This document shows, piece by piece, positions 1 to 36,751 of a DNA stretch of 39,099 nucleotides. The position numbers were made by a program, and so were the translations under genes. Under the pieces are notes generated by a model. It searched no databases, was not told where the DNA came from, and saw only the letters and a list, made by a program, of their open reading frames with translations. Location: IMG/VR virus record IMGVR_UViG_2537561603_000005. The stretch is one strand, 5' to 3'. The DNA comes from a virus (taxonomy: Duplodnaviria > Heunggongvirae > Uroviricota > Caudoviricetes). Position 1 is the first letter of the stretch. Each line of letters begins with the position of its first letter.

Positions 1-267
1 ATGAGGGTATCCAGACAAGCATCGAATAATTTGTTTGTTCGAGAGGGGTGTGACTGGTCTGCTAAAGCGGTATATGCAGCCCTTGAAAACAAAGGCACAG
101 ACCTCCCTGAACTGGAAAGGGAGTTAGGATTAAAAAGCGGATCAATGCGCAACGTGTTTTACCGCCAGTGCCGTAAGTACGAAGCCGCCATCGCCGAAAA
201 AATAGGGGTTGAACCTGCTGTAATCTGGCCCAGCAGATACCAGGTGGACGCCAGAGAAGTGGCCTGA
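1..267 (+). CDS. ner: Ner-like DNA-binding early regulator
   Basis: 88-aa ORF ending ...EPAVIWPSRYQ, matching the conserved C-terminus recalled for Mu Ner; lies immediately upstream of the transposase with ATGA stop/start overlap. Confidence 0.75.
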   Translation: MRVSRQASNNLFVREGCDWSAKAVYAALENKGTDLPELERELGLKSGSMRNVFYRQCRKYEAAIAEKIGVEPAVIWPSRYQVDAREVA

Positions 268-2369
268 TGGAGGGATGTATGTGGGTAACAGCAAAAGAAT
301 GTGTTGGTCTTCCTGATTTACCAATGATGGAACATAACATTCGCCATAGACTCACAAAAGCAGCTGCTGGAAATGCAGCCATGTTACGCAAACGTAAGGG
401 AACAAAAGCCATCGAATTTAATATCGATTGTTTGCCTTATTGTGCACAACAAGTATTACGCGAACGTTACGCCCTTCAACTGATGACGCAAAAAGCCGAC
501 GAATCACCGGCTCCGGTGGTGACAAAAGCCAGACGCTCACCTGCCGTGGTTGATGCGGTGGAAGCATATCGCGGATCACCACAACTGATGGTCGAACGCC
601 TCAATGCCCTGACTGAAAACCAGCGCCAGGTGGCCGATGCACGAATCGCGATCGTCAGCGAAGTGATGAAAGTCGCGCAACAACCCGGCTTTAGTTGCGC
701 TAAGGCTATCCGGTTTATCGTTGACAGCCTGGCACGCTCACAACTGGACGAGCGCATTGTGGCAATGGTTGAGACGGCGAACGCCAAAAAGGGAAACCGC
801 CGCGCGTTGAGTGAAATCACGCTGAAACGCTGGATTGCGGCCTTTAACAAGGCGCAGAACGCCGCTGAACGCCTGCTTTTACTGGCACCGGGTAAACGTC
901 AGGAAATAAAAGCCGAAGATATTAACTGGCTGCCCGAATTTCTGGCGCAGTATCGCCAGTCAAACGGCCGACCAATGACCGAGGCTTACGAGGATTTTGT
1001 CGCCGAATGGCAGCACCGGCACGCTGATGAGCCTTATATGCTCGATATCATGCCCTCTTATGACACCATTCGCCGCGCAATGAAGAAACTGCCGGAAGTG
1101 GTGAAACAAAAAGGCCGGGTGACCGGCAGTGAATACCGTCAGCTTGAGGGATTCACGCGCCGCGACTGGTCAAAAATGCCGGTGAATTATGTCTGGATTG
1201 GTGACGGTCACGGCATGAAGCTGAAATGTGCGCACCCGGTTCACGGGCGGCCATTTGCACCGGAAGTAACCTTTGTTATCGACGGTGGCACGCGCTTTGT
1301 GGTGGGCTGGAGCCTTGATCTGGCTGAAAATGTTTTCGCTGTAGCCGGTGCCATACAGCACGGCATTCGCCATCACGGCAAACCGTTTCTGTATTACTCG
1401 GATAACGGTTCCGGGGAAACCGCCGACGTCCTGGATAAGGAAGTTGTGGGGATCCTGCCACGACTGGGGATTAATCACCCGACCGGGATTGCCGGTAATC
1501 CGCAGGGACGGGGCATTATCGAACGGCTTAACCGCACATTACCGATGCGCATAGCCCGTAAATACCGCACCTATTTCGGGAAAGGTGCAGATCGCGAGAC
1601 GTTACGCAAAACCAACCGCGATTTACGCTCGGCATTCAGTGCCCTGCAACAGGGTAAGTGGCTGAACGCCCGGCAGCAGTCAGCGATGCGTGATTTACCG
1701 TCCTGGTCTGAACTGATTGATGCCATTCGTGACGGTGTTGAGTGGTACAACAACCGGCCGCACGATGAATTACCCATGAAGCCGAACGGTAAACATTACA
1801 GCCCGGCGGAGTTCAGAAAAAAACGCCTGGCGGAAGAGGACACGGAAATTGAATGGCTGTCCGATGTTGAGCTGCGGGATATGTTCCGGCCGATGGTGGA
1901 GCGCCCTGTAAGACGCTGTGAAATACGCTGGCTGAATAATATTTACTACGCGCCCGAGCTGCGTGACGAGCATGGCCGTAAGGTACTTATCAGCTATGAC
2001 ATTCATGATGCCGAACGAATTACCGTGCGCCGCCCGGATGGCAGCGTGATTTGCGAGGCGGTATGGGACGGCAATAAACGCGAAGCCTTCCCGGTCAGCG
2101 CGGAATACTACAAACAGCAGCAGCGCCTTAAAGGCATGCGTAAACGCGCAGAGGAAAAAATCCGTGATGCCGAGGATGAGATTGTCAACGTGCTGGAGCA
2201 CAAGCCACAGGAGCCGTGGCTGGAAAATATATACCGCCCTGTGGGTAATACGGTGACCGTTCAGCAACCGGTCGCTGACGATGAACCTGATGAAGAATAC
2301 GAGCGTAATTTCCAGCGGGGATTGCAGCTGCTCGAAGCGAAATTAAAAGAAAATGATCCGCTGGCCTGA
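267..2369 (+). CDS. A: DDE transposase A (MuA-like)
   Basis: 700-aa ORF; N-terminus MEGCMWVTAKECVGLPDLP resembles recalled MuA N-terminus (MELWVSPKECANLPGLP); central acidic-core region (VWIGDGHGMK); position after ner. Confidence 0.9.
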   Translation: MEGCMWVTAKECVGLPDLPMMEHNIRHRLTKAAAGNAAMLRKRKGTKAIEFNIDCLPYCAQQVLRERYALQLMTQKADESPAPVVTKARRSPAVVDAVEAYRGSPQLMVERLNALTENQRQVADARIAIVSEVMKVAQQPGFSCAKAIRFIVDSLARSQLDERIVAMVETANAKKGNRRALSEITLKRWIAAFNKAQNAAERLLLLAPGKRQEIKAEDINWLPEFLAQYRQSNGRPMTEAYEDFVAEWQHRHADEPYMLDIMPSYDTIRRAMKKLPEVVKQKGRVTGSEYRQLEGFTRRDWSKMPVNYVWIGDGHGMKLKCAHPVHGRPFAPEVTFVIDGGTRFVVGWSLDLAENVFAVAGAIQHGIRHHGKPFLYYSDNGSGETADVLDKEVVGILPRLGINHPTGIAGNPQGRGIIERLNRTLPMRIARKYRTYFGKGADRETLRKTNRDLRSAFSALQQGKWLNARQQSAMRDLPSWSELIDAIRDGVEWYNNRPHDELPMKPNGKHYSPAEFRKKRLAEEDTEIEWLSDVELRDMFRPMVERPVRRCEIRWLNNIYYAPELRDEHGRKVLISYDIHDAERITVRRPDGSVICEAVWDGNKREAFPVSAEYYKQQQRLKGMRKRAEEKIRDAEDEIVNVLEHKPQEPWLENIYRPVGNTVTVQQPVADDEPDEEYERNFQRGLQLLEAKLKENDPLA

Positions 2370-2451
2370 AATAAAAAAATAACCCGAGGGGTGACTCAGG
2401 TTATTTGAAGTTTCAGTCTCGGAGAATGCTGTCTCAAGCGAGGTGAATAAT

Positions 2452-3384
2452 ATGACCGATATTAACGATGTAATCAAGACCATTGATGAGCTGATTGATG
2501 GCGGCATACTGACACAGTATGCCATCGCCAGAGAAGCGGGAATTTCCGACGGCACATTATCGGCTTTCCGTAAGGGAAAATATAAAGGCGATAACGCTGC
2601 TGTGGCTGCTTCCCTGCGTTCCTGGTGTGAGAACTGGAATAAACAAAGCGCACTGCCCGAGCCGCCGCAGTTTGTGGAAACGCAGACAGTCCTGGAGCTG
2701 CGCGCACTGTTTCAGGCGGTTCGCCTGATGGGCTGTATTAACGTCATTGTGGGTGTACCGGGTGTGGGTAAAACGGCCACCGCCCGTAATTACTGTCAGG
2801 AGCAACCGAACACCTGGATGATAACCCTGTCTCCCGCGCATTCCAGCGTCACGGAGTGTCTGCTGGAGCTGGCAGAGGAGCTGGGGATTGATTACACCCG
2901 CGCGAACAAAGGGGCATTATCCCGCGCCATCCGTCGTCGCCTGATGGGAACGCGTGGACTGGTGATTGTTGATGAGGCGGATCATCTTGGTATTGACGGT
3001 CTGGAGCAGCTCCGGGCAATCCAGGACGCCACGGGGATCGGGATGGTGCTTATTGGTAACCCGCGCGGGTTGTTTAAAGGTGGACGCCGCGCCTTTGATG
3101 ATTTATCGCGCCTGTTCAGCCGTCTTGCCCGTACAAAACAACTTCGCAAGGCCAAAAAGGCGGATGTGCTGGCCATTGCCAGGGCGTGGGGTATCAGTGG
3201 TGAGGCCGAGCTGGCCGTCATGCAGGCTATCGCTGAAAAGCCGGGAGCGTTACGCGTTCTGACACATACGCTTAACCAGGCGTGGCTCACCGCCAGCGGT
3301 GAAGGCGCGGCGCTGACAGAAAAACATATTAATGCGGCCTTTAAAGAGGTTTATACCAACCCTGAATTACTCTCACAGGTGTGA
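2452..3384 (+). CDS. B: Transposition ATPase B (MuB-like AAA+ protein)
   Basis: Walker A GVPGVGKT, Walker B-like VIVDEADHLG, ALPEPPQFVETQTV block shared with recalled MuB; ATG at 2452 preceded by GAGGTG (track ORF starts at GTG 2443). Confidence 0.85.
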   Translation: MTDINDVIKTIDELIDGGILTQYAIAREAGISDGTLSAFRKGKYKGDNAAVAASLRSWCENWNKQSALPEPPQFVETQTVLELRALFQAVRLMGCINVIVGVPGVGKTATARNYCQEQPNTWMITLSPAHSSVTECLLELAEELGIDYTRANKGALSRAIRRRLMGTRGLVIVDEADHLGIDGLEQLRAIQDATGIGMVLIGNPRGLFKGGRRAFDDLSRLFSRLARTKQLRKAKKADVLAIARAWGISGEAELAVMQAIAEKPGALRVLTHTLNQAWLTASGEGAALTEKHINAAFKEVYTNPELLSQV

Positions 3385-3386
3385 TT

Positions 3387-3608
3387 ATGGCGGTATTTAA
3401 TATTCCTGATATTTACGGACGCTTTTACCTGGTTAATTTCGATAACGTGAAGGTGATTTCACTGGCCGAAAATAAAGAATGTGGCGATTTACTTTTTGAA
3501 TTTAATGACCGCACACGAATGGTGATATCTGCCGGACTTGATCGCGAAGGTGCGACAGAAGTTTACAGCGGAATATGCCGTTCTGTTGGTGCAAAACAAG
3601 TCAGATAA
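3387..3608 (+). CDS. hypothetical early protein
   Basis: Small ORF tightly packed after B in same orientation; ATG overlaps B stop. Confidence 0.45.
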   Translation: MAVFNIPDIYGRFYLVNFDNVKVISLAENKECGDLLFEFNDRTRMVISAGLDREGATEVYSGICRSVGAKQVR

Positions 3609-3620
3609 ACGAGGTGTTAT

Positions 3621-4040
3621 ATGAATACGCAGATACAGCAGGAAATCAATGTTCTCCACAGTTTTCGTGCGTTTAACAACAATGACTGTGAGGTTCGTGA
3701 TTATATCTTTGAATTGATGAACGGTGACGGTGTGTGTTTTCTGTTTATCGACCTGTATCTATGGTATGCAGACCAGCAGTGTGAATCTGTCCGGCAGCGT
3801 TTTTATGTTGGATACTTTAACCATCATGTCTGGGAAAGCCTGCGCTTTGGTTTTCTGATCCAGGGGGATTATCGCCAGGGGTGGCGACACGGTTACTCCA
3901 TCCTTCGGGCAATCATGCGTGGCGAAACCCGAAAAATTCCGGGGATGGGTAAGGTTAATCGCGGCCTCCTGTCAGAGATGGCAGCAGCGCACATGAATCC
4001 ATTACTGATACAACCGGAGTTCACCTATGAATTTGTTTGA
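3621..4040 (+). CDS. hypothetical early protein
   Basis: 139-aa ORF in early operon, operon-style spacing. Confidence 0.5.
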   Translation: MNTQIQQEINVLHSFRAFNNNDCEVRDYIFELMNGDGVCFLFIDLYLWYADQQCESVRQRFYVGYFNHHVWESLRFGFLIQGDYRQGWRHGYSILRAIMRGETRKIPGMGKVNRGLLSEMAAAHMNPLLIQPEFTYEFV

Positions 4041-4257
4041 TTCACTGAATAACGCCCGTCGCCTGACCGAACTTGCCGGTGCGGTACTGGAGCGCAGCAA
4101 ACGCTACCCGCAACGCTTTGCACTGAAAACCACGCCACCGCTAAGCAAGGTTCATGGGACTGGAGAGGAAATTGAAATCACCGTTAAGACCAATGGCCTG
4201 CGCCGCCGTGTAAAAGCCACCCGCATCAGCGGCTGCACGGTTTACTGGGAAGTATGA
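4027..4257 (+). CDS. hypothetical early protein
   Basis: 76-aa ORF overlapping neighbours by a few nt in early operon. Confidence 0.4.
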   Translation: MNLFDSLNNARRLTELAGAVLERSKRYPQRFALKTTPPLSKVHGTGEEIEITVKTNGLRRRVKATRISGCTVYWEV

Positions 4258-4331
4258 AGTTGCTTCATGGTTCGGCTCTGTCATCAGGTCGGACGCCGGG
4301 TCAGTTATCCGAACAAAACGAGGACCAGAGG

Positions 4332-4604
4332 ATGAGTAAAGTCGTACGCATTATTTTCGAATATAGGGAGGACGTTATCCGTAAAAACGCTGATGGAAGC
4401 GTGCACAAGGGGGTAAGTCTGGATATACGGTCAACCGGAATAAAGAAGAAAGATAATGGACCCGCCATGATTTTTGGGGTGGTTATGCTCGCGGAAAGCA
4501 GAAACTTCGCAGAGCTTGTGGCAATGAAAGCCAGTGCATTCATGAAAGACAGGGGCATGGCTTCCGGGGTTATTAACGGTAATGAATTTAATCAGCAGGG
4601 GTAA
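4332..4604 (+). CDS. hypothetical early protein (paralogue 1, N-terminus MSKVVRIIFEY)
   Basis: ATG preceded by GAGGA; N-terminus nearly identical to the next gene. Confidence 0.5.
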   Translation: MSKVVRIIFEYREDVIRKNADGSVHKGVSLDIRSTGIKKKDNGPAMIFGVVMLAESRNFAELVAMKASAFMKDRGMASGVINGNEFNQQG

Positions 4605-4608
4605 TTCC

Positions 4609-4902
4609 ATGAGCAAAGTACGCGTTATTTTTGAATTTAACCACGTAATGCATGACGAAAAGCTGACAGGCAATGACTGTGTTGAAATGCATGAAAAGAT
4701 TGGTGTGGATGTGAAAACAGAACGTGATACGAATAACAGGCCGACGTCACTCTGTGACGTTTATGCAAGTATTCTCCAGTATCACAGTCCTGAAATTATT
4801 CAGTTTCTCTCAGCGGAATTTCAGGCATCTGCACAGGCTTTTGGAGCGGATGCCATCATTAAACGCCACCGCGTGCATAAAGCATCAGGCACACTGCAAT
4901 AA
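4609..4902 (+). CDS. hypothetical early protein (paralogue 2, N-terminus MSKVRVIFEF)
   Basis: ATG 5 nt after previous stop; shared N-terminal motif with upstream gene. Confidence 0.5.
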   Translation: MSKVRVIFEFNHVMHDEKLTGNDCVEMHEKIGVDVKTERDTNNRPTSLCDVYASILQYHSPEIIQFLSAEFQASAQAFGADAIIKRHRVHKASGTLQ

Positions 4903-4913
4903 GGAAAAACAAA

Positions 4914-5444
4914 ATGGCTAAACGCGTTACAAAATTAAAGGCCGCAGCCGAGGCGGCACCGCAGACCCGGGAAGAAGTCAGCCGTGATATCCGCACCCTG
5001 GGAGATATTCAGCGAGAGGCGCTGCGCCTGGAAACAGCGATGAATGATGAAGTGGCAGAAATCACCGCCCGTTATACGCCGCAGATTGAAAATCTTAAAA
5101 AGCAAATCAAAGTGCTTTTTAAAGGGATTCAGGACTGGTGTAAAACCAACCGTGATGAGCTGACGAACGGCGGCAAAACCAAAACTGCCAATCTGACCAC
5201 CGGAACGGTGTCATGGCGGCTGGGAACGCCATCATGCAGCGTCAGCCGTGATGTGGAAGGTGTGATTGACATGCTGCGCCGTATGGGGCTTGAGCAATTC
5301 ATCCGTACGAAAGAGGAAGTGAACAAGGAAGCCGTCCTGGCGGAGCCGGATGCGGTGAAAGGGATTGCCGGTATTAAGGTGAATAAAGGTGCTGAAAGTT
5401 TTTATGTCGAGCCTTTTGAACAGGACGCTGGACTGAATAAATAA
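4914..5444 (+). CDS. gam: Gam host-nuclease inhibitor (Mu Gam / Ku-like)
   Basis: 176 aa; blocks such as RLETAMNDEVAEITARY, NRDELTNGGKTKTANLTTGTVSWR and FIRTKEEVNKEA match recalled Mu Gam. Confidence 0.85.
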   Translation: MAKRVTKLKAAAEAAPQTREEVSRDIRTLGDIQREALRLETAMNDEVAEITARYTPQIENLKKQIKVLFKGIQDWCKTNRDELTNGGKTKTANLTTGTVSWRLGTPSCSVSRDVEGVIDMLRRMGLEQFIRTKEEVNKEAVLAEPDAVKGIAGIKVNKGAESFYVEPFEQDAGLNK

Positions 5445-5589
5445 CACCGAATTAATCAATTAAATATCACTTCATTTTAATTATGGCGCTCGCGTCAGGG
5501 GACTGCTTGCGCCTGAAAACAGAAAATAAGGGTTAAGAAATATTAAATACGTTTATATCGTCATTAATAATGTGGTGGGGAAATAAATC

Positions 5590-6123
5590 ATGATTGATGC
5601 AAAAGTGCTTGAAGGGGTTAAAAACTGGCTGAGTATTTACGGACGTCTGACCTGCGGCATTCTGGCTGAAAAAATGAATATGCCGCCATCCTCGATGGTC
5701 TATTTTCTGCGTGATGCGGTTGATGCAGGCGTGCTGACGGAATGTAACGGTTTTTATGATATTCCGCGTCCCCGCCCGGTGCAGCCGGTTCGTCGCAAAT
5801 GCAGCCAGGAATGTGCGGCTGATGATGTTCAGTGGTGCAGCTTCAGAAAATCCCTGCCGTGGATTGAGGGGCATGATATTCCGTCGATGGCGTGGGAATT
5901 TGCTCAGGGCGTGCTGACCTGTGAAACCGTTTATGTGGTGGCTGAAGTTGATGAGCAGGCCATGAAAGAAGGTGTACCCCAGTTTGTGATGGCGTATATC
6001 GACATACGCCTGGGTGTCATCATCTGCGGTTTAAGCGGCTGGAATATCACCGCGCGTGTTCTACGTTACCTGATTGTTGACCGGACGGCAGCGCCTGCCG
6101 GGATATCTGCGGAGGTGGCGTAA
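5590..6123 (+). CDS. hypothetical early protein
   Basis: 177-aa ORF following a 145-nt AT-rich intergenic gap after gam. Confidence 0.5.
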   Translation: MIDAKVLEGVKNWLSIYGRLTCGILAEKMNMPPSSMVYFLRDAVDAGVLTECNGFYDIPRPRPVQPVRRKCSQECAADDVQWCSFRKSLPWIEGHDIPSMAWEFAQGVLTCETVYVVAEVDEQAMKEGVPQFVMAYIDIRLGVIICGLSGWNITARVLRYLIVDRTAAPAGISAEVA

Positions 6124-6638
6124 TGTTCTTTAAAACATCAAACCCTTCCGCGCTGGCTGCGTGGCAAAAATACCAGCAGGACTGCCAGAAAGTTAAGGAT
6201 GAGGCAAAACACCTTGAGGCCGTGCTGAATGTTGAGTGCCGGTCGGTATTTGTATCCGGTATCAGTGGCTTTTGTTTTAAGGGGCTGAGTTTTACGGATG
6301 ACAAATATCCTTTTCATCGTGATTTATGGCGAAAACCAACTGCGTCGAATGGCTGGAGCTGCACACCGCGCACGTCACGTATCCCTAAAGCCCTGCGTGT
6401 TGCCTCTGATGAACTGAGCAGTCTGTGGTGTGAATATTCGCCCGTCACGTATGCCAGAACCGATGCCCTGTTGTTCTGGCTGGGCATTGACTTCTCAGCA
6501 ATACTGTTTGGCCCCGTGAACTGGTTCTGCGTTGACGATGTGATTTACCTTCAGTGCGAAGATGATTCCGCAAAACGGAAAATGACCGAAATACTGTCTG
6601 ATGAGTTTTATGCTGCTGAAAAGCGAGTCAGGGGGTGA
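6123..6638 (+). CDS. hypothetical early protein
   Basis: 171-aa ORF, start overlaps previous stop. Confidence 0.5.
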   Translation: MFFKTSNPSALAAWQKYQQDCQKVKDEAKHLEAVLNVECRSVFVSGISGFCFKGLSFTDDKYPFHRDLWRKPTASNGWSCTPRTSRIPKALRVASDELSSLWCEYSPVTYARTDALLFWLGIDFSAILFGPVNWFCVDDVIYLQCEDDSAKRKMTEILSDEFYAAEKRVRG

Positions 6639-6641
6639 TGT

Positions 6642-7193
6642 ATGATGATTTTACAACCCATGGGGCGAAAAGGCCGTGCACCCGCTCATGTTAGCGCATG
6701 GACACCTGAAGAAGATGCGCTGCTGATTGCGCTTTATCCATCCACCCCGGTTAAGGATATTGCTGTCAGAGTAAAAAGAAGTTTCTGGGGTGTACATAAC
6801 CGGATTGTTTTATTACGCGGTACTTACCCGGAGTTGCTCAAATGCAAACACCCCAGATTTAAACCTGATGAAGATAAATTTATCCGAAAAAATGCCAGAA
6901 CGATGACCAGCAGGCAAATGGGGGAGTATCTCGGGCGACATCATGACAGCATCCGCTGCCGGGCACGAGTGACTGGCGTCAGCTTAAAAAAGTGTGGTGA
7001 ATTGTTGCCCTTCACCCGTATACCTGACGATGATGTTCGTCTTATTCGTGAATTACGGGATGCTGAATCGCCACGACGTATTACCTTCCGGGAAATAGGC
7101 GAGAAATTTGAATTATCCGAGAGTACGGTGAATTTTATTTATCACCATCGCCGGACTGCCGGGGACGCTGTATTACGGGAGCTAACGCCATGA
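6642..7193 (+). CDS. hypothetical protein with three HTH-like repeats
   Basis: Three internal repeats of a P-[ED]-[ED]-D ... I-x-x-[LI]-x-R pattern (WTPEEDALLIAL / KPDEDKFIRKN / IPDDDVRLIREL). Confidence 0.5.
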   Translation: MMILQPMGRKGRAPAHVSAWTPEEDALLIALYPSTPVKDIAVRVKRSFWGVHNRIVLLRGTYPELLKCKHPRFKPDEDKFIRKNARTMTSRQMGEYLGRHHDSIRCRARVTGVSLKKCGELLPFTRIPDDDVRLIRELRDAESPRRITFREIGEKFELSESTVNFIYHHRRTAGDAVLRELTP

Positions 7194-7519
7194 TAACGAC
7201 CTTATTTGTTGAATCAGATGAACCTCTTGTGTGTGCTGCCGGAATGCCGGTCTGTGGCGGAAAACTGACCGGCGTTTATTTCGGGGATTTACGCGCTTAT
7301 CCCTGGCATTCACTGAATGATGCTTTCCCGCCTGATATGGAGGCTGTCGTGCTGATTGTTCAGTATGGTCACCGACAGGAGCTGCGTATCGGCCATATGG
7401 GGTATGAAGGCTTTTTTGTTGATGAAGAAACCGGAGCCTGCCTTGAAGATGAGGACGGACAGGTGACGCACTGGTGCCATATTTCGGCTTTACCGGAATT
7501 ACGGGAGGTGAATGCGTGA
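7190..7519 (+). CDS. hypothetical early protein
   Basis: 109-aa ORF, start overlaps previous stop. Confidence 0.5.
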   Translation: MITTLFVESDEPLVCAAGMPVCGGKLTGVYFGDLRAYPWHSLNDAFPPDMEAVVLIVQYGHRQELRIGHMGYEGFFVDEETGACLEDEDGQVTHWCHISALPELREVNA

Positions 7520-7866
7520 GAAGTTATATTGATAATGAAAAGCTGGAGACAATAAGCGACTGCCTTAACTTACTGGCAAAAATCAAAGAAGCTATTGAAG
7601 AGATTAAATTTCAGCTTGAATACGCACCATGTGGCAATGATGCATGGCGTAATGCTGCCAGAAAAGCACTGGCTGTCTTTCAGAAACAACGCCGGACGGT
7701 TGAATACCGCCTTGCTGTATTACGCCAGGAGGAAAAGGAAAGAAATATAAGACGTCATGAACGCGTTAATGATTTTCTTGTTCGTGAATTAAAAGAGCGT
7801 GTGCCGGAATCGGTATTTTTTGAATGTGAGGCTATAGCCCGTAGCAAAGCACTGGAAACAGATTAA
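7516..7866 (+). CDS. hypothetical protein (AT-rich block)
   Basis: GTG start after GGGAGGTGA, overlapping previous stop (track ORF begins 7474); AT-rich, coiled-coil-like. Confidence 0.4.
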   Translation: MRSYIDNEKLETISDCLNLLAKIKEAIEEIKFQLEYAPCGNDAWRNAARKALAVFQKQRRTVEYRLAVLRQEEKERNIRRHERVNDFLVRELKERVPESVFFECEAIARSKALETD

Positions 7867-7881
7867 GCAGGCAGGTGAATA

Positions 7882-8190
7882 ATGAGTATTGAATTAAGAT
7901 CGTCTTATGAATATCGAAAAATCCTTATCGCCGGAGGGATGAAACCGGAAGATGCAGAAAAATTCGTTTCTTTTATGGATAAAGAATGTGACAAGCGGGA
8001 TATGCCAGAAATTATTATGGATGACATGATTCTGGATTCAGTTGTGGCGTTAAGTCCGTTATGGATTGTGCATACTCTTGCGGAAATAGCTAAAAGAAGT
8101 GACAAGCAGGCGGCTGTCGCCGCCCTGCGATTACTGGCTGAATTAAGTTGTTCAGTCAATCCCAATACGTTCTTTGACGAACCTGGTTAA
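7882..8190 (+). CDS. hypothetical protein (AT-rich block)
   Basis: 102-aa ORF preceded by AGGTGA; AT-rich. Confidence 0.45.
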   Translation: MSIELRSSYEYRKILIAGGMKPEDAEKFVSFMDKECDKRDMPEIIMDDMILDSVVALSPLWIVHTLAEIAKRSDKQAAVAALRLLAELSCSVNPNTFFDEPG

Positions 8191-8562
8191 CATTGATTTG
8201 GTAACTTCTTTGATTAGATCAAATGGTGCGTCTGTAAACTCCTTTTTGATTCTTTCAAGGATTGGTTTTTTTCTCAGGGCGTTAGCTAAATCATGCCCCT
8301 GCTGGGTAAGCATAATGGGCGTGTTTCTGAAACCAACGCCCAGAGAATGAAAAAAGAAACCAATATATTTGGGTGTTTCTGACTGCATATCACCATTAAC
8401 AATTGAGCCATTATCAGCGAGAAGCATAAGATGAAAAACTTTTTTATCCTTTTCCTCTCCTTCTGCCTCAGCCATGCCCAGATCCTGTAGTGTAAGGAAA
8501 GGTGTTTCAGTATCCTGAAAAGTTGTGAGAATACTTAATACTTCATCGTAATCTATTTTCAT
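8152..8562 (-). CDS. hypothetical protein, reverse-oriented accessory gene
   Basis: 136-aa ORF on the opposite strand to the whole early operon; markedly AT-rich; 3' end converges on and overlaps the previous + gene. Confidence 0.5.
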   Translation of the reverse strand: MKIDYDEVLSILTTFQDTETPFLTLQDLGMAEAEGEEKDKKVFHLMLLADNGSIVNGDMQSETPKYIGFFFHSLGVGFRNTPIMLTQQGHDLANALRKKPILERIKKEFTDAPFDLIKEVTKSMLTRFVKERIGID

Positions 8563-8626
8563 ACCGATACCTTTAGTTTTATCCGGGCGGCGTTGCCATG
8601 CCGCCTGTTGTTACGGAGACACGATA

Positions 8627-9139
8627 ATGAATCGCGCTTCCCTGATTACCTTAATACATGTCGCAAAACGCGATCTACAGCTTGACCATGAAACCTATAC
8701 ATCCGTGCTGCTGGCAGCCACCGGCAAACCCAGTTGCCGGGATATGTCACCGGATGAGTTATCCCGCGTGCTGGATGTTTTCAAAAAACGCGGTTTTAAA
8801 GTTCGTCAGAAACCGGTTAACCGGGCCTTAAAACCGGGTACGGTGACCGCCAAAATTCGCGCCATCTGGAAAGTGATGCACCGGCAGGGCTTTATCGCTG
8901 ATGGCGGGGAAAACGCCCTTAACTGCTGGGTGAAATCGCAGACGGCCGCGCAGAACGGCGGTGAAGGTGTGGCTAACTGGCAGTGGCTGGAGCAACACCC
9001 CGCACTGGCCTCTGATGTGCTGGAGCGTCTCAAACGCTGGCACCGCCGCAAAATGCTGGATGTGCTGGGGATGTCAGCGCGTACAGTGATAAGTTATGAG
9101 CGCGTTTGCAGGCTGTATAAAAAATCATTCCCCCGTTAA
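8627..9139 (+). CDS. gemA: GemA-like protein (Mu gp16 family)
   Basis: N-terminus MNRASLITLIHVAKRDLQLDHETYTSVLLAATGKPSCRDMS matches the gp16/GemA family pattern as recalled; position before the activator gene. Confidence 0.65.
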   Translation: MNRASLITLIHVAKRDLQLDHETYTSVLLAATGKPSCRDMSPDELSRVLDVFKKRGFKVRQKPVNRALKPGTVTAKIRAIWKVMHRQGFIADGGENALNCWVKSQTAAQNGGEGVANWQWLEQHPALASDVLERLKRWHRRKMLDVLGMSARTVISYERVCRLYKKSFPR

Positions 9140-9143
9140 CTCC

Positions 9144-9176
9144 AAATCCCGCCACAGCGCGGGATTTTTATTTTAA
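9144..9176 (+). terminator. Rho-independent terminator after gemA
   Basis: 9-bp stem AAATCCCGC / GCGGGATTT with 6-nt loop followed by TTTTTATTTT. Confidence 0.7.
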
Positions 9177-9209
9177 ACTTGCCCTGTGTAATGATGACCG
9201 GAGGCGGGT

Positions 9210-33210: not shown

Positions 33211-33783
33211 ATGCTGATTGGGTATATCAGGGTGTCAACAAATGACCAGAATACGGCGCTACAGAGAAATGCGCTGGAATGTGCAGGATGTGAGCTGTTT
33301 TTCGAAGACAGAATAAGCGGTAAGACAAGGGAACGTCCCGGCCTTAAACGCGCATTAAAGCGACTCCGGCCAGGGGATACCCTGCTGGTCTGGAAACTGG
33401 ATCGTCTTGGACGTAGTATGCAGCACCTTGTCCTTTTAACAGAAGAACTCCGGCAGCGCGGCGTTAACTTCCGCAGCATTACGGACAATATTGATACATC
33501 CACTCCCATGGGACGTTTCTTTTTCCATATAATGGGCGCACTGGCGGAAATGGAGCGGGAACTCATTATTGAACGTACACGCGCGGGTCTTGCTGCTGCC
33601 CGTGCTCAGGGGCGTCATGGCGGCAGACCTCAGAAACTGACAGAGAAAGAACGGGAGCAAATCGCCCGTTTGCTGGCTAATGGCGAGTCCCGTAAACAAA
33701 TTGCACTGATATTTGATATTGGCCTTTCCACCCTTTATCGTTATTTTCCTGTCTCATCGGCTCCGTCACCAAAAGTACCGTGA
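33211..33783 (+). CDS. gin: serine DNA invertase (Gin/Hin/Pin family)
   Basis: N-terminal catalytic motif MLIGYIRVSTNDQNTALQRNAL with active-site Ser; C-terminal HTH; adjacent to the inverted-repeat-bounded segment. Confidence 0.9.
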   Translation: MLIGYIRVSTNDQNTALQRNALECAGCELFFEDRISGKTRERPGLKRALKRLRPGDTLLVWKLDRLGRSMQHLVLLTEELRQRGVNFRSITDNIDTSTPMGRFFFHIMGALAEMERELIIERTRAGLAAARAQGRHGGRPQKLTEKEREQIARLLANGESRKQIALIFDIGLSTLYRYFPVSSAPSPKVP

Positions 33784-33868: not shown

Positions 33869-35947
33869 ATGTCAGACTCCCAGTGGAAAATGCTCTCCGC
33901 CATGCCCGGAGAGTTTTCAGTCAAGGTTGCCGGTGGCACGGTGGCATTTATTGAAAGTCCTTTCAGGCCTTCGGGTAATAAAGGGGGGATCACCTTCGCA
34001 GACTGTGTGATCCGCTTCAGCACGAAAGAGCCATTATGGGTAATGCCGGTATCCGGCAATCCCAGCGCAGAAATCACCAGTTCAGGCGTGACCGGCATTA
34101 TTCCGATCACATCTGACGTGGCCGGAACACTCACGCCTTCTGACTGGAATGCACCGGATAACGCCGGACCGTCTGGCGGTACAAATGGCAGCAGTACAGA
34201 GCCGGAGTATTACTATGTGCTTCCACTGGCCGGGCAGTCCAACGGGATGGCCTACGGTGAAGGGCTTCCGCTACCGGCTTCATTCGACCGCCCTGAACCG
34301 CGCATTAAGCAACTGGCACGTCGCAGCACGGTAACGCCAGATGGTACGTCGTGCACATATAACGACATCATTCCCGCAGACCACTGCCTGCATGATGTGC
34401 AGGACATGAGCGGGATAAACCACCCGAAAGCTGATCTGGCAAAAGGCCAGTACGGGACTGTCGGTCAGGGGCTGCATATTGCCAAAAAACTGCTGCCTTA
34501 CATCCCGCAGAATGCCGGGATACTTCTGGTGCCCTGTTGCCGTGGCGGGTCAGCATTCACCACCGGGGATGACGGCTCATTCAGTGAGGCCAGCGGTGCT
34601 TCCGCTGATTCTTCACGCTGGGGTGCCGGTAAACCCCTGTATCAGGACCTGGTAAGCCGCACCAGAGCGGCGCTGGCGAAGAACCCGAAAAACAAACTTC
34701 TGGCCGTGGTATGGATGCAGGGAGAGGCAGACCTTGCATCGGGAAGTCAGCAGCATAATGGTTTATTCACGACCATGGTTCAGCAGTTCAGAACTGACCT
34801 GTCTCCGCTTGCTGCGCAGTGTGTGAGAGGAAATACCACCACGGTGCCGTGGATTTGCGGTGATACCACGTATTACTGGAAAAACCTTGGCACCGATAAA
34901 TATGAGGCAGTATACGGTGGCTACAAAGGCAAGGAAGCACAGAAAATTTTCTTTGTACCGTTCCTGACGGATGAGAATGGACAGAACACGCCAACGAATG
35001 CTCCGGCGGAAGACCCGGATATTGTGGCTGTCGGGTATTACGGTGCGGCATCCCGTACCCAGGGCAGTTTTGTCTCCACACAGCGTGACAGCCATTTCAG
35101 CTCATGGGCACGCAGGGGCATCATTTCTGACCGTCTGGCCTCAGCCATTCTGCTCCATGCGGGACGCACACCTGAAGTGATGCAGGGACCGGTTGTGACA
35201 CAGCCGGATGAAAAACCATCACCTGACACGCCATCAACACCATCGCCGGATACACCCTCCACACCACCGGCTGACACCACGACGATGAGCACCCTGTTTG
35301 CTTACCGGGCATCAGAGTCTGAAGGACAGCTGGCACCACAGGGCTGGACTGCCGGAGGCGGTAAGGCCCAAATCGTGGATGATGCCGGAGCAGGTAGTGG
35401 TAAGGCCATGAAACTGACCAAGGAAACAGGCAAATCCTCCTGGTACCTTGAGCATGATGCCGGTAATGGTGCGGACCTGCTGGGTAAAGGTGGCCTTGTC
35501 AGTTGCCGGTTTAAGGTTGATGGTGCGCTTACGGCTAATCAGTACGCGATGGCGCTGTACTGGCCGGTTTCTGCCCTGCCGCAAGGGGTTACTCTGGAAG
35601 GTAATGCCGGTCATAACCTGCTGGCATCGTTTTACGTTCAGAGCGATGCCACAGACCTTAACGTGATGTACCACAAGGGCAATACGGCGCAAAACACGAA
35701 ACTGGGGTCATTCGGTGCATTTAATAACGAATGGCATACGCTGGGCTTCCGTTTTGCCGGTAACAACAGTATTGAGGTGACGCCGGTCATTGATGGTAAG
35801 GACGGGACACCATTCATGCTGTCGCAGTCTCCGGTCGGCACGTTTACGGCAGACAAGTTGCGCGTGACCGATATCACTAACGGTGCAACATACCCGGTGC
35901 TGATTGACAGCATTGTGGTGGAGGTTAATACCCCGTCAGCGGGATAA
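33869..35947 (+). CDS. SGNH/SASA-type carbohydrate esterase-like protein with Pro/Thr linker and C-terminal lectin-like domain (accessory gene)
   Basis: LPLAGQSNGMAYGE (GQSN esterase motif) about 115 aa from the N-terminus; linker PDEKPSPDTPSTPSPDTPSTPPADTT; beta-rich C-terminal domain. Confidence 0.55.
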   Translation: MSDSQWKMLSAMPGEFSVKVAGGTVAFIESPFRPSGNKGGITFADCVIRFSTKEPLWVMPVSGNPSAEITSSGVTGIIPITSDVAGTLTPSDWNAPDNAGPSGGTNGSSTEPEYYYVLPLAGQSNGMAYGEGLPLPASFDRPEPRIKQLARRSTVTPDGTSCTYNDIIPADHCLHDVQDMSGINHPKADLAKGQYGTVGQGLHIAKKLLPYIPQNAGILLVPCCRGGSAFTTGDDGSFSEASGASADSSRWGAGKPLYQDLVSRTRAALAKNPKNKLLAVVWMQGEADLASGSQQHNGLFTTMVQQFRTDLSPLAAQCVRGNTTTVPWICGDTTYYWKNLGTDKYEAVYGGYKGKEAQKIFFVPFLTDENGQNTPTNAPAEDPDIVAVGYYGAASRTQGSFVSTQRDSHFSSWARRGIISDRLASAILLHAGRTPEVMQGPVVTQPDEKPSPDTPSTPSPDTPSTPPADTTTMSTLFAYRASESEGQLAPQGWTAGGGKAQIVDDAGAGSGKAMKLTKETGKSSWYLEHDAGNGADLLGKGGLVSCRFKVDGALTANQYAMALYWPVSALPQGVTLEGNAGHNLLASFYVQSDATDLNVMYHKGNTAQNTKLGSFGAFNNEWHTLGFRFAGNNSIEVTPVIDGKDGTPFMLSQSPVGTFTADKLRVTDITNGATYPVLIDSIVVEVNTPSAG

Positions 35948-35996: not shown

Positions 35997-36111
35997 GTGA
36001 TATTCCAAACCCATTAAGGAATACAACAACTCAATTAAAGAAGGCCATTATTTACGCAGTTACTTTTTAACCGGGAACTGTTTCTGTAGTCAATATCAAA
36101 GGTAAGGTTAT

Positions 36112-36294
36112 ATGACATTTGTTCATACAATGCTGCTTTATTTCTGCACGGCGGTATGTGCGTTATATCTGGTGAGTGGTGGTTATAAGGCCATCAGAAA
36201 TTATGTTCGCCGCAAAATTGATGATGCAGCAACTGAAAAACTTAGTAAAACAGCGCAGGCCGCCTCACTCCCAAAAGACCCGACCCAGCCCTGA
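36112..36294 (+). CDS. small hypothetical membrane protein
   Basis: 60 aa with N-terminal hydrophobic helix (MLLYFCTAVCALYLVSGGY); SD-like AAGGTAAGG upstream; AT-rich island. Confidence 0.3.
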   Translation: MTFVHTMLLYFCTAVCALYLVSGGYKAIRNYVRRKIDDAATEKLSKTAQAASLPKDPTQP

Positions 36295-36329
36295 TTGCAG
36301 GACTGTATTCCCGCATAAGGAGGATATAC

Positions 36330-36584
36330 ATGCCAGAAATTAAAGGCACCGTCACTGAAGACCTGGTTAAACAGGCTCTGTATTCCGGTGAAGTAAATAA
36401 ATTACTGAAAGCGCAGGTCCGCAAGGATTTTGAGGCACAAATCGACACTTACGTTGATGAGGTGCTGGCAAAACTTATTGGGCCAGCAGCTGCGACCAGT
36501 GATGCTGATAATGAGCCGAAAACCGAAGCACAGCCAGAGCAACCAGAACCGGCTCAGCCCGGAACTGACAGCACCATGATGTAA
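36330..36584 (+). CDS. small hypothetical acidic protein
   Basis: 84 aa; strong SD AAGGAGG 8 nt upstream of ATG; followed by a hairpin. Confidence 0.4.
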   Translation: MPEIKGTVTEDLVKQALYSGEVNKLLKAQVRKDFEAQIDTYVDEVLAKLIGPAAATSDADNEPKTEAQPEQPEPAQPGTDSTMM

Positions 36585-36590
36585 CAATAC

Positions 36591-36620
36591 AAACCGGCAG
36601 TTTCTCCTGCCGGTTTGACA
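36591..36620 (+). terminator. hairpin after small gene
   Basis: Perfect 10-bp stem AAACCGGCAG / CTGCCGGTTT with 6-nt loop. Confidence 0.45.
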
Positions 36621-36751
36621 CCAATGAAAACATCTTTACCGCTATCCAGCTATATGTAATCGCTGGATAGTATTTCGTATTCAGAAATACAGCTGCTTAT
36701 GGAGCAGTCAATCCAGCTTCCCCATCCTGGCAGACAAATGAACCTGTATCA

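Follow-up and report, generated by a model that had tools for sequence, protein, structure and literature searches.

A reversed DUF2513-family gene in an exchangeable slot upstream of gemA-mor in a Mu-like prophage, and its conserved convergence with the early gene p102

The window analysed in this study is a stretch of 39,099 nt (IMG/VR record IMGVR_UViG_2537561603_000005) that represents a Mu-like (Sp18-type) transposable prophage. All its early genes from Ner to Mor are encoded on the plus strand, with the exception of 8152-8562, which is the sole credible reversed gene in the table of open reading frames (ORFs) of this region and had been singled out as such in a preliminary description of this DNA. 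Our data demonstrate that 8152-8562(-) is an intact, conserved accessory gene, and that it is located in a recombination-prone slot upstream of gemA-mor, a recurrent point of exchange for which we found at least three fillings. It is ordinary phage cargo in a plasticity slot, and its product is already annotated in RefSeq as a DUF2513 protein. The conserved convergent pair that it forms with the preceding gene, here called p102, together with the integron and defence-gene settings of its relatives, provides one non-trivial lead for a possible prophage-encoded protective role. The coordinates of all features are listed in Table 1.

The protein encoded by the reversed gene matches the profile phrog_585 over its full length (E 7.4e-18; residues 1-134 aligned to positions 1-126 of the 128 in the profile). 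For PF10711 (DUF2513) a score of 23.7 bits was obtained (E 6.4e-5, profile positions 1-96 of 100), while the Pfam cut-off is 29.6 bits. The direct gathering cut-off is not reached, and membership of the DUF2513 family is established only via intermediate sequences: PF10711 was hit by 100 of the 130 aligned relatives (best E 9e-15), and a precomputed PF10711 match exists for many database relatives. An exhaustive HMMER search resulted in 249 cluster representatives at E<=1e-3, nearly all of them 130-145 aa long and aligned from end to end. These alignments include the C-terminal helix that is encoded in the overlap with the neighbouring gene. Longer family members (150-240 aa) were considered as domain fusions, but on inspection look like mis-called starts or ends. 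RefSeq lists the E. coli protein under the name "DUF2513 domain-containing protein", and WP_000687317.1 is identical in four E. coli strains (Japan, Myanmar, Gambia) that differ in the flanking proteins.

The start codon is preceded by a Shine-Dalgarno sequence (Table 1), and AAGGA is present 6-7 nt upstream of the start in two divergent relatives (L004 and L006). The preliminary description had made the status of the gene dependent on homologues and on a promoter or a ribosome-binding site; homologues and a ribosome-binding site are both present, while a consensus promoter was not found. The missing consensus promoter is also the one observation in favour of the view that 8152-8562 is no gene at all but a random ORF in the antisense strand of AT-rich DNA. 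Considering the 249 full-length relatives, the AlphaFold2 model with a pLDDT of 97, the conserved Shine-Dalgarno sequence and the identical protein in four strains, this view has next to no probability, and it is refuted by the homology and structure results. In E. coli AF39 (L003) the homopolymer at 8266-8272 has T6 instead of T7, which leads to a frameshift and a product of 115 aa. This change could reflect real inactivation, phase-like variation or a homopolymer sequencing error.

AlphaFold2 reached a pLDDT of 97.1 with an alignment of 130 sequences, compared to 65 with 4 sequences. In this model the protein is a single acidic domain, with a predicted winged-helix core followed by three C-terminal helices; the helix bundle and the beta-hairpin wing can be superposed on solved winged helix-turn-helix (wHTH) proteins. 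The nearest folds are the MarR/PadR/TubR regulators, with TM-scores of only about 0.4. None of the Pfam models for MarR, PadR and HxlR was hit by the window protein at E<=0.1, and neither a PDB sequence search nor a BFVD fold search returned anything informative for it. Acidity is a property of the whole family (median pI 5.3; 5.2 for the window protein), and the helix in the presumed recognition position is mostly hydrophobic. The best-conserved motif of the family is PIRLTQxGHDFAxAL, and His44 and Gly68 are also well conserved. The window protein has Met84 (codon 8311-8313) at a position that is occupied by Arg in at least 90% of the family. Given Met84, the E. coli/Shigella allele may be functionally divergent. 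The names returned by a profile search were only "DUF2513" or "hypothetical", and the paper on SfMu, a closer relative of Mu, holds nothing on a reversed early gene.

In order to see how the gene is distributed, related prophages were compared for its presence or absence, as the preliminary description had proposed. The gene is present in some of them and replaced in others: of the 233 E. coli records with a match to the region only 6 carry it (absent in about 97%). In the other E. coli records the homology extends to position 8126 of the window, breaks off, and is found again from 8654. The exchangeable segment between these breakpoints runs from the last 21 codons at the 3′ end of p102 across the reversed gene and the spacer into gemA, of which it includes the first 27 nt (9 codons). 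Its usual filling (L001/L002, 3728-4311) is 584 nt long with 43.8% GC and contains two small plus-strand genes for 65 and 98 aa, the second of which is translationally coupled to gemA. One of these two genes encodes a zinc-ribbon-like protein (CxxC...CxxC). In the variant of the window gemA starts 64 nt past the reversed gene, without translational coupling to an upstream gene. A third filling (PO06021; L064 2302-3016) consists of a small Cys-rich ORF, a plus-strand gene for 95 aa and an unrelated reversed gene for 79 aa with a convergent overlap of 20 nt. In S1-CAM-01-A (L063 1953-2933) the slot has received an IS5-family (IS5/ISKpn26) insertion together with a deletion. No PADLOC or NCBIfam match was obtained for the alternative fillings, the GC content of which is 41.8-43.8%.

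The preliminary description had interpreted the reversed gene and the two plus-strand genes in front of it as an AT-rich, later-acquired insertion. The compositional part of this claim holds. A sliding-window calculation showed that composition is not uniform across the region: the GC content is 40.7% at 7516-8600 versus 53.7% in the whole window, which places this block in the lowest 0.3% of all 1085-nt windows and makes it essentially the minimum of the early region. The reversed gene has 38.4% GC (34% at third codon positions, GC3), and the two preceding genes are indeed AT-rich as well, with 41.3% (7516-7866) and 41.1% (7882-8190), compared to 50.7% in the upstream early region (1-7473), 54.0% in gemA and 55.1% in mor. 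Low GC is not confined to this block, since 3381-3608, 4582-4902, 32-33 kb and 36-39 kb are equally AT-rich. Two of these stretches are small early genes (3381-3608, GC3 34%; 4582-4902, GC3 41%), so the early region is compositionally patchy throughout.

The idea of an insertion stands only in part. The reversed gene is variable cargo, but it replaces 584 nt and is not inserted between otherwise intact sequences. The two preceding genes do not belong to any acquisition: in all sampled relatives 7516-7866 and 7882-8126 show about 90-92% conservation, and they are equally AT-rich (42.2%) in relatives without the reversed gene. Since these conserved genes and the alternative fillings are as AT-rich as the reversed gene, low GC is a trait of the lineage at the end of its early region and not the footprint of a single acquisition. 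Nor is the arrangement recent, because relatives with 32-54% protein identity are reversed at the same place with a 39-nt overlap.

As proposed in the preliminary description, the reversed gene overlaps the 3′ end of p102, and the length estimated there is exact: 39 nt (8152-8190). The PGAP annotation of four E. coli genomes shows this overlap as well. To follow the pair further, 59 loci with relatives of the reversed gene were retrieved, and Mu genes were mapped by tblastn and iterated HMM searches. In 30 of the 32 Mu-like loci, which come from several genera and have transposases with 25-85% identity to that of the window, the gene is antisense to the early operon and convergent with a p102 homologue. 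The remaining two are not assessable, since one locus (L019) ends about 300 nt beyond the gene and another (L045) holds only a MuA fragment at its end. Among the relatives, 20 loci have an overlap of 39 nt, 6 one of 30 nt and 4 one of 18 nt, and in another 4 the ends abut. Usually p102 comes first, then the reversed gene, GemA and Mor; four loci have GemA ahead of p102 and the reversed gene, with Mor behind them, which shows that the pair stays together when gemA does not. The same pair is even present inside a myovirus baseplate operon (L033-L035), together with the hub gp41, a spike with Apex motif and Baseplate_J. In these loci (for example L033, 6866-7636) it lies between the spike with the Apex motif and the next baseplate genes, and the DUF2513 gene is again the only reversed one in an otherwise one-way operon. 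A pairing that is kept across genera and phage types is hard to explain without a functional link.

Residues 1-81 of p102 belong to the core of the lineage (about 92% nucleotide identity in relatives), while its last 21 codons fall within the exchangeable segment. The protein carries the conserved motif W-I-V...D-K-x-A-A-V-A-A-L. No relation to p102 was found in Pfam, PDB or NCBIfam, where only designed helical repeats matched, and the sole hit in the deposited phage collection was a Mu-like insert in a Stx2c phage.

Outside Mu-like phages, relatives of the reversed gene occur in very different settings. Relatives with 47% identity (L020-22) are found in lambdoid prophages beside tail genes. 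In one of these (L021, 6088-9149) the gene is directly downstream of and co-oriented with a CI-like repressor gene (HTH_3 + Peptidase_S24), and it adjoins the PADLOC candidate defence pair PDC-M18A/B. In a Klebsiella lambdoid phage the relative is located between the lysis genes and the terminase. More distant relatives (30-37% identity) occur as single-gene cassettes between attC/VCR-like repeats in Vibrio, Microbulbifer and a Chromatiaceae genome; in L048, for example, repeats at 4366-4413 and 4957-5004 flank the ORF at 4487-4954, a second copy (7178-7684) is flanked likewise, and similar arrays are present in L056, L058 and L062. Based on the flanking repeats these distant relatives qualify as integron cassettes. 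One Vibrio qingdaonensis array harbours two different copies of the family. Finally, in Thiopseudomonas (L057, 2806-10683) a relative has type I HsdR/YgjP on one side and the candidate defence genes PDC-S06/PDC-S60 on the other. The integron, lambdoid and defence-island settings imply that the family protein can work without p102, gemA or Mu. A confidently foldable, uncharacterised family is found in three gathering places of protective genes, namely prophage cargo sites, integron cassettes and a defence island.

Expression signals were searched by a consensus scan and a weighted scan for sigma-70 promoters, the weighted scan covering 160 nt upstream of the gene in the window and in 21 relatives against the background of the locus. 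No consensus promoter stood out in the window or in most relatives, and only the L031, L033 and L034 groups scored above background; consensus scans cannot exclude weak or activator-dependent promoters. Within 7000-9700 a minus-strand terminator was not found, and an Rfam scan of the same interval returned sub-threshold chance hits only.

A GC-rich hairpin (Table 1) lies in the spacer from which the reversed gene and gemA diverge. Its z value is only −1.6 in context, and its tail reads TGTTGTT. Homologous hairpins in four relatives (L004, L008, L014, L064) are followed by T6-T8 on the early strand and are located directly before the gemA Shine-Dalgarno sequence, and by these sequence features they look like a terminator on the early strand. 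The window hairpin differs from them by the compensatory replacement of one U-A pair by C-G, and its T tract is degraded. The hairpin is absent in L001, where gemA is translationally coupled, and in L006, L011 and L024, which have a 30-nt spacer. A terminator-like element is placed on a strand that is to be read for mor. In L064 the hairpin occurs together with another reversed gene. The GC palindrome was also considered as a Mor-type activator site. This was rejected, since its centre is about 34 nt away from either start codon, and a site centred near −43 would place each of the two transcription starts within a coding region. A further terminator-like hairpin was noticed in the gap between gemA and mor (9144-9167; 9 bp, then TTTTTATTTT), inside the presumed single early transcript. 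It has an energy of −13.5 kcal/mol and a z value of −4.1, and 0 of 200 shuffled sequences were as stable.

We tentatively favour the view, to which we give somewhat less than an even chance, that the reversed gene is a cargo gene whose expression does not depend on the early operon and probably takes place in the lysogen, and that it confers exclusion or defence. As the gene faces against the early promoter, its transcription would be independent of the lytic programme and would most likely take place in the lysogen. As a dimer, the winged-helix protein may bind nucleic acid or a protein of a phage, and its function would be to protect the lysogen by superinfection exclusion or phage defence. 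When the early operon of the own prophage fires, RNA polymerase that passes through p102 would run antisense across the gene and shut it down; p102 is a possible phage-side partner or neutraliser. A working parallel is offered by rexAB-type cargo, which acts in the lysogen and for which the phage encodes avoidance of self-harm (as cited in PMC4378225). A more specific version of this model, which we regard as rather unlikely, would have p102 and the reversed gene form an undescribed two-gene module: the winged-helix protein would be produced in the lysogen and would either stop superinfecting phages or restrict leaky early expression of the prophage, the module would be turned off in lytic growth by head-on transcription across the 39-nt overlap and by p102, and the stand-alone relatives would represent a new small single-gene anti-phage family. 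If the family is protective, a very small winged-helix effector would be added to the defence genes, together with an example of a prophage gene that is silenced by the lytic transcription of its own phage.

Several observations weigh against the idea of an independently expressed protective cargo gene. With no consensus promoter at hand, the independent expression of the reversed gene is assumed. Neither the reversed gene nor p102 matched any of the 5027 models of PADLOC-DB v2 at E<=1, the reversed gene had no hit in NCBIfam, and a search of the available literature retrieved nothing relevant on the DUF2513/phrog_585 family. Both databases also returned nothing meaningful for p102, p116, p109 and the alternative slot genes. 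The adjacency to defence genes was seen in two hand-picked loci, which are examples and no measure of enrichment. Simple DNA binding is a weakened reading, given the acidity of the family and the largely hydrophobic helix in the presumed recognition position. One of the six E. coli carriers is frameshifted, and given this carrier and Met84, selection on the window allele may be weak. Finally, p102 is present without the reversed gene in about 225 E. coli records, and family members exist without p102. As each partner is found alone, the pair is not obligatory.

Other functions of the protein have to be considered. It could be a phage-intrinsic regulator, a winged-helix DNA binder, encoded head-to-head with gemA-mor, that tunes the early-to-middle switch or the maintenance of lysogeny. 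Such a protein might bind the GC palindrome at 8584-8607, while convergent transcription and the hairpin would attenuate read-through into gemA-mor. This view is in agreement with a fold closest to the MarR/PadR/TubR regulators, with a position that is always beside gemA or mor in Mu-like phages, and with the homologous GC hairpin, carrying one compensatory change, between the gene and gemA in several lineages. The gene is dispensable, however, being absent from about 97% of the close E. coli prophages, in which gemA is coupled to the upstream gene, and relatives exist in settings without gemA or mor, such as integron cassettes, the baseplate operon, the lambdoid late region and the defence island. 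The hairpin is not specific for this protein, since L064 combines it with a different reversed gene, and the protein itself is acidic and has Met in place of a near-invariant wing Arg. We consider a regulatory role unlikely, though not far-fetched.

Even less can be said for the proposal of the preliminary description, which regarded the gene as a candidate for an anti-restriction or host-takeover function. The protein is small and acidic, as are many DNA-mimic inhibitors, and the gene is positioned in the semi-essential early region, which holds host-interaction genes in transposable phages. In Pseudomonas Mu-like phages the anti-CRISPR genes are located in low-GC plasticity regions (PMC4378225), which lends some further support to an anti-defence protein. 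On the other hand, a gene that is antisense to the early operon is not included in the early transcript, the first one that an incoming phage produces, the relatives are bacterial integron cassettes and part of a bacterial defence island, and the fold is a winged helix and not a known DNA mimic. Searches of Pfam, PHROGs and BFVD revealed no similarity to known anti-defence proteins, and extending them to NCBIfam and PDB gave no relevant anti-restriction or anti-defence match. The proposed Pfam and defence-HMM search of the 136 aa protein was carried out, and no defence or anti-defence model matched; with no PADLOC, Pfam or NCBIfam match of this kind, the proposal finds no support and appears very unlikely to us. 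We view as similarly improbable that p102 and the reversed gene form a toxin-antitoxin-like addiction or abortive-infection pair, the balance of which is set by convergent overlapping transcription. The conservation of the convergent 3′ overlap over deep divergence and the joint movement of the pair into an unrelated operon would fit, as would the distant relatives in integron arrays, which are rich in toxin-antitoxin cassettes (10.1101/2024.07.02.601686). Against this, each partner is common without the other, neither gene resembles a known toxin or antitoxin family, and the integron relatives are single-gene cassettes.

The remainder of the window agrees with a Mu-like prophage (Table 1). 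GemA and Mor were assigned by PF06252 and PF08765, and the Gin-type invertase gene follows the lysis and morphogenesis genes. Between gin and mom a protein of 692 aa with a SASA carbohydrate-esterase domain and DUF6645 is encoded (33869-35947), which may be surface-polysaccharide-modifying or tail-associated cargo. The mom gene lies in a low-GC stretch (36000-39099, 35-47%). As it is followed by a host usher gene, the right prophage end is placed at about 38.2-38.3 kb. The closest Mu-like relatives are held by 232 of 5,426 complete E. coli genomes (about 4%), many of them O157, O111, O103 and O26, and many carriers of this prophage family are Shiga-toxin-producing E. coli.

Table 1. Features of the 39,099-nt window (positions refer to the whole window)
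Feature	Position	Strand	Remarks
Ner-type wHTH protein	1-267	+	early region
Transposase A, 700 aa	267-2369	+	early region
MuB ATPase (B)	2443-3384	+	early region
Gam	4914-5444	+	early region
Conserved early gene, 116 aa, phrog_6158	7516-7866	+	core of the lineage, 41.3% GC
p102, 102 aa, phrog_1988, helical	7882-8190	+	overlaps the reversed gene tail-to-tail
Exchangeable segment, 527 nt, 40.6% GC	8127-8653		homology breakpoints 8126/8654
Convergent 3′-3′ overlap of p102 and reversed gene	8152-8190		39 nt
Reversed gene, 136 aa, pI 5.2, predicted winged helix, DUF2513/phrog_585	8152-8562	-	profile matches, HMMER, AlphaFold2
T7 homopolymer (A7 on the coding strand)	8266-8272		inside the reversed gene
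Shine-Dalgarno sequence AAGG	8570-8573	-	7 nt before the ATG at 8562
GC-rich hairpin, 10 bp, −17.6 kcal/mol	8584-8607	+	in the spacer that separates the reversed gene from gemA
GemA (gp16 family)	8627-9139	+	PF06252, E 8e-28
Mor, middle operon regulator	9210-9632	+	PF08765, E 5e-31
Gin-type invertase	33211-33783		downstream of lysis and morphogenesis genes
Mom family, 310 aa	37261-38193		within the low-GC right end
Host PapC-type fimbrial usher gene	from 38317	-	beyond the prophage

Among known families, the reversed gene is most similar to DUF2513 (PF10711) and PHROG 585, with which it shares the length class and, for phrog_585, the full-length match; for PF10711 the window protein stays below the cut-off (23.7 versus 29.6 bits). 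DUF2513 is a family without known function, so membership is silent on the mechanism. With the MarR/PadR/HxlR/TubR regulators the protein has in common the winged-helix core with flanking helices and a size that fits a one-domain dimeric regulator. It differs from them in that no match exists at the sequence level, and in that three helices usually precede the beta-wing, while the model of the window protein has only one long helix there. The family is acidic, with a largely hydrophobic helix in the presumed recognition position.

The distant relatives from Vibrio and other marine gammaproteobacteria resemble the defence cassettes of sedentary chromosomal integrons (10.1101/2024.07.02.601686) in being single-gene cassettes with attC/VCR-like repeats. 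In that study about 18% of the tested unknown V. cholerae cassettes protect against phages, and for none of the systems named in its main text is a DUF2513 or winged-helix domain mentioned (10.1101/2024.07.02.601686); most cassettes of such integrons are not defence genes. The rexAB genes show no sequence or fold relation to the reversed gene, and the parallel serves as a working model only, although the relative in L021 is directly downstream of a CI-like repressor gene in the same orientation, as are rexAB.

A close comparison is to the morons of phages and to the genomic plasticity regions (RGPs) that were described for lambdoid and Pseudomonas Mu-like phages (PMC4378225). Like these, the exchangeable segment occupies a fixed site with conserved genes on either side, contains one or two short genes, and is present in some close relatives and replaced in others. 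A GC content below that of the neighbours is a further trait of such regions; the composition is ambiguous in our case, since 38.4% GC in the reversed gene contrasts with 54% in gemA, yet the genes on the other side have 41% and the fillings 42-44%. The function of morons and RGPs is usually unknown and at times protective for the phage or the lysogen (PMC4378225). A classical moron has its own promoter and terminator and is positioned between intact genes, whereas here consensus scans revealed no promoter of its own and a downstream terminator was likewise not found, and the segment replaces genes and extends into p102 (3′ end) and gemA (5′ end). Also different from morons, the reversed gene is kept tail-to-tail with one neighbour over deep divergence.

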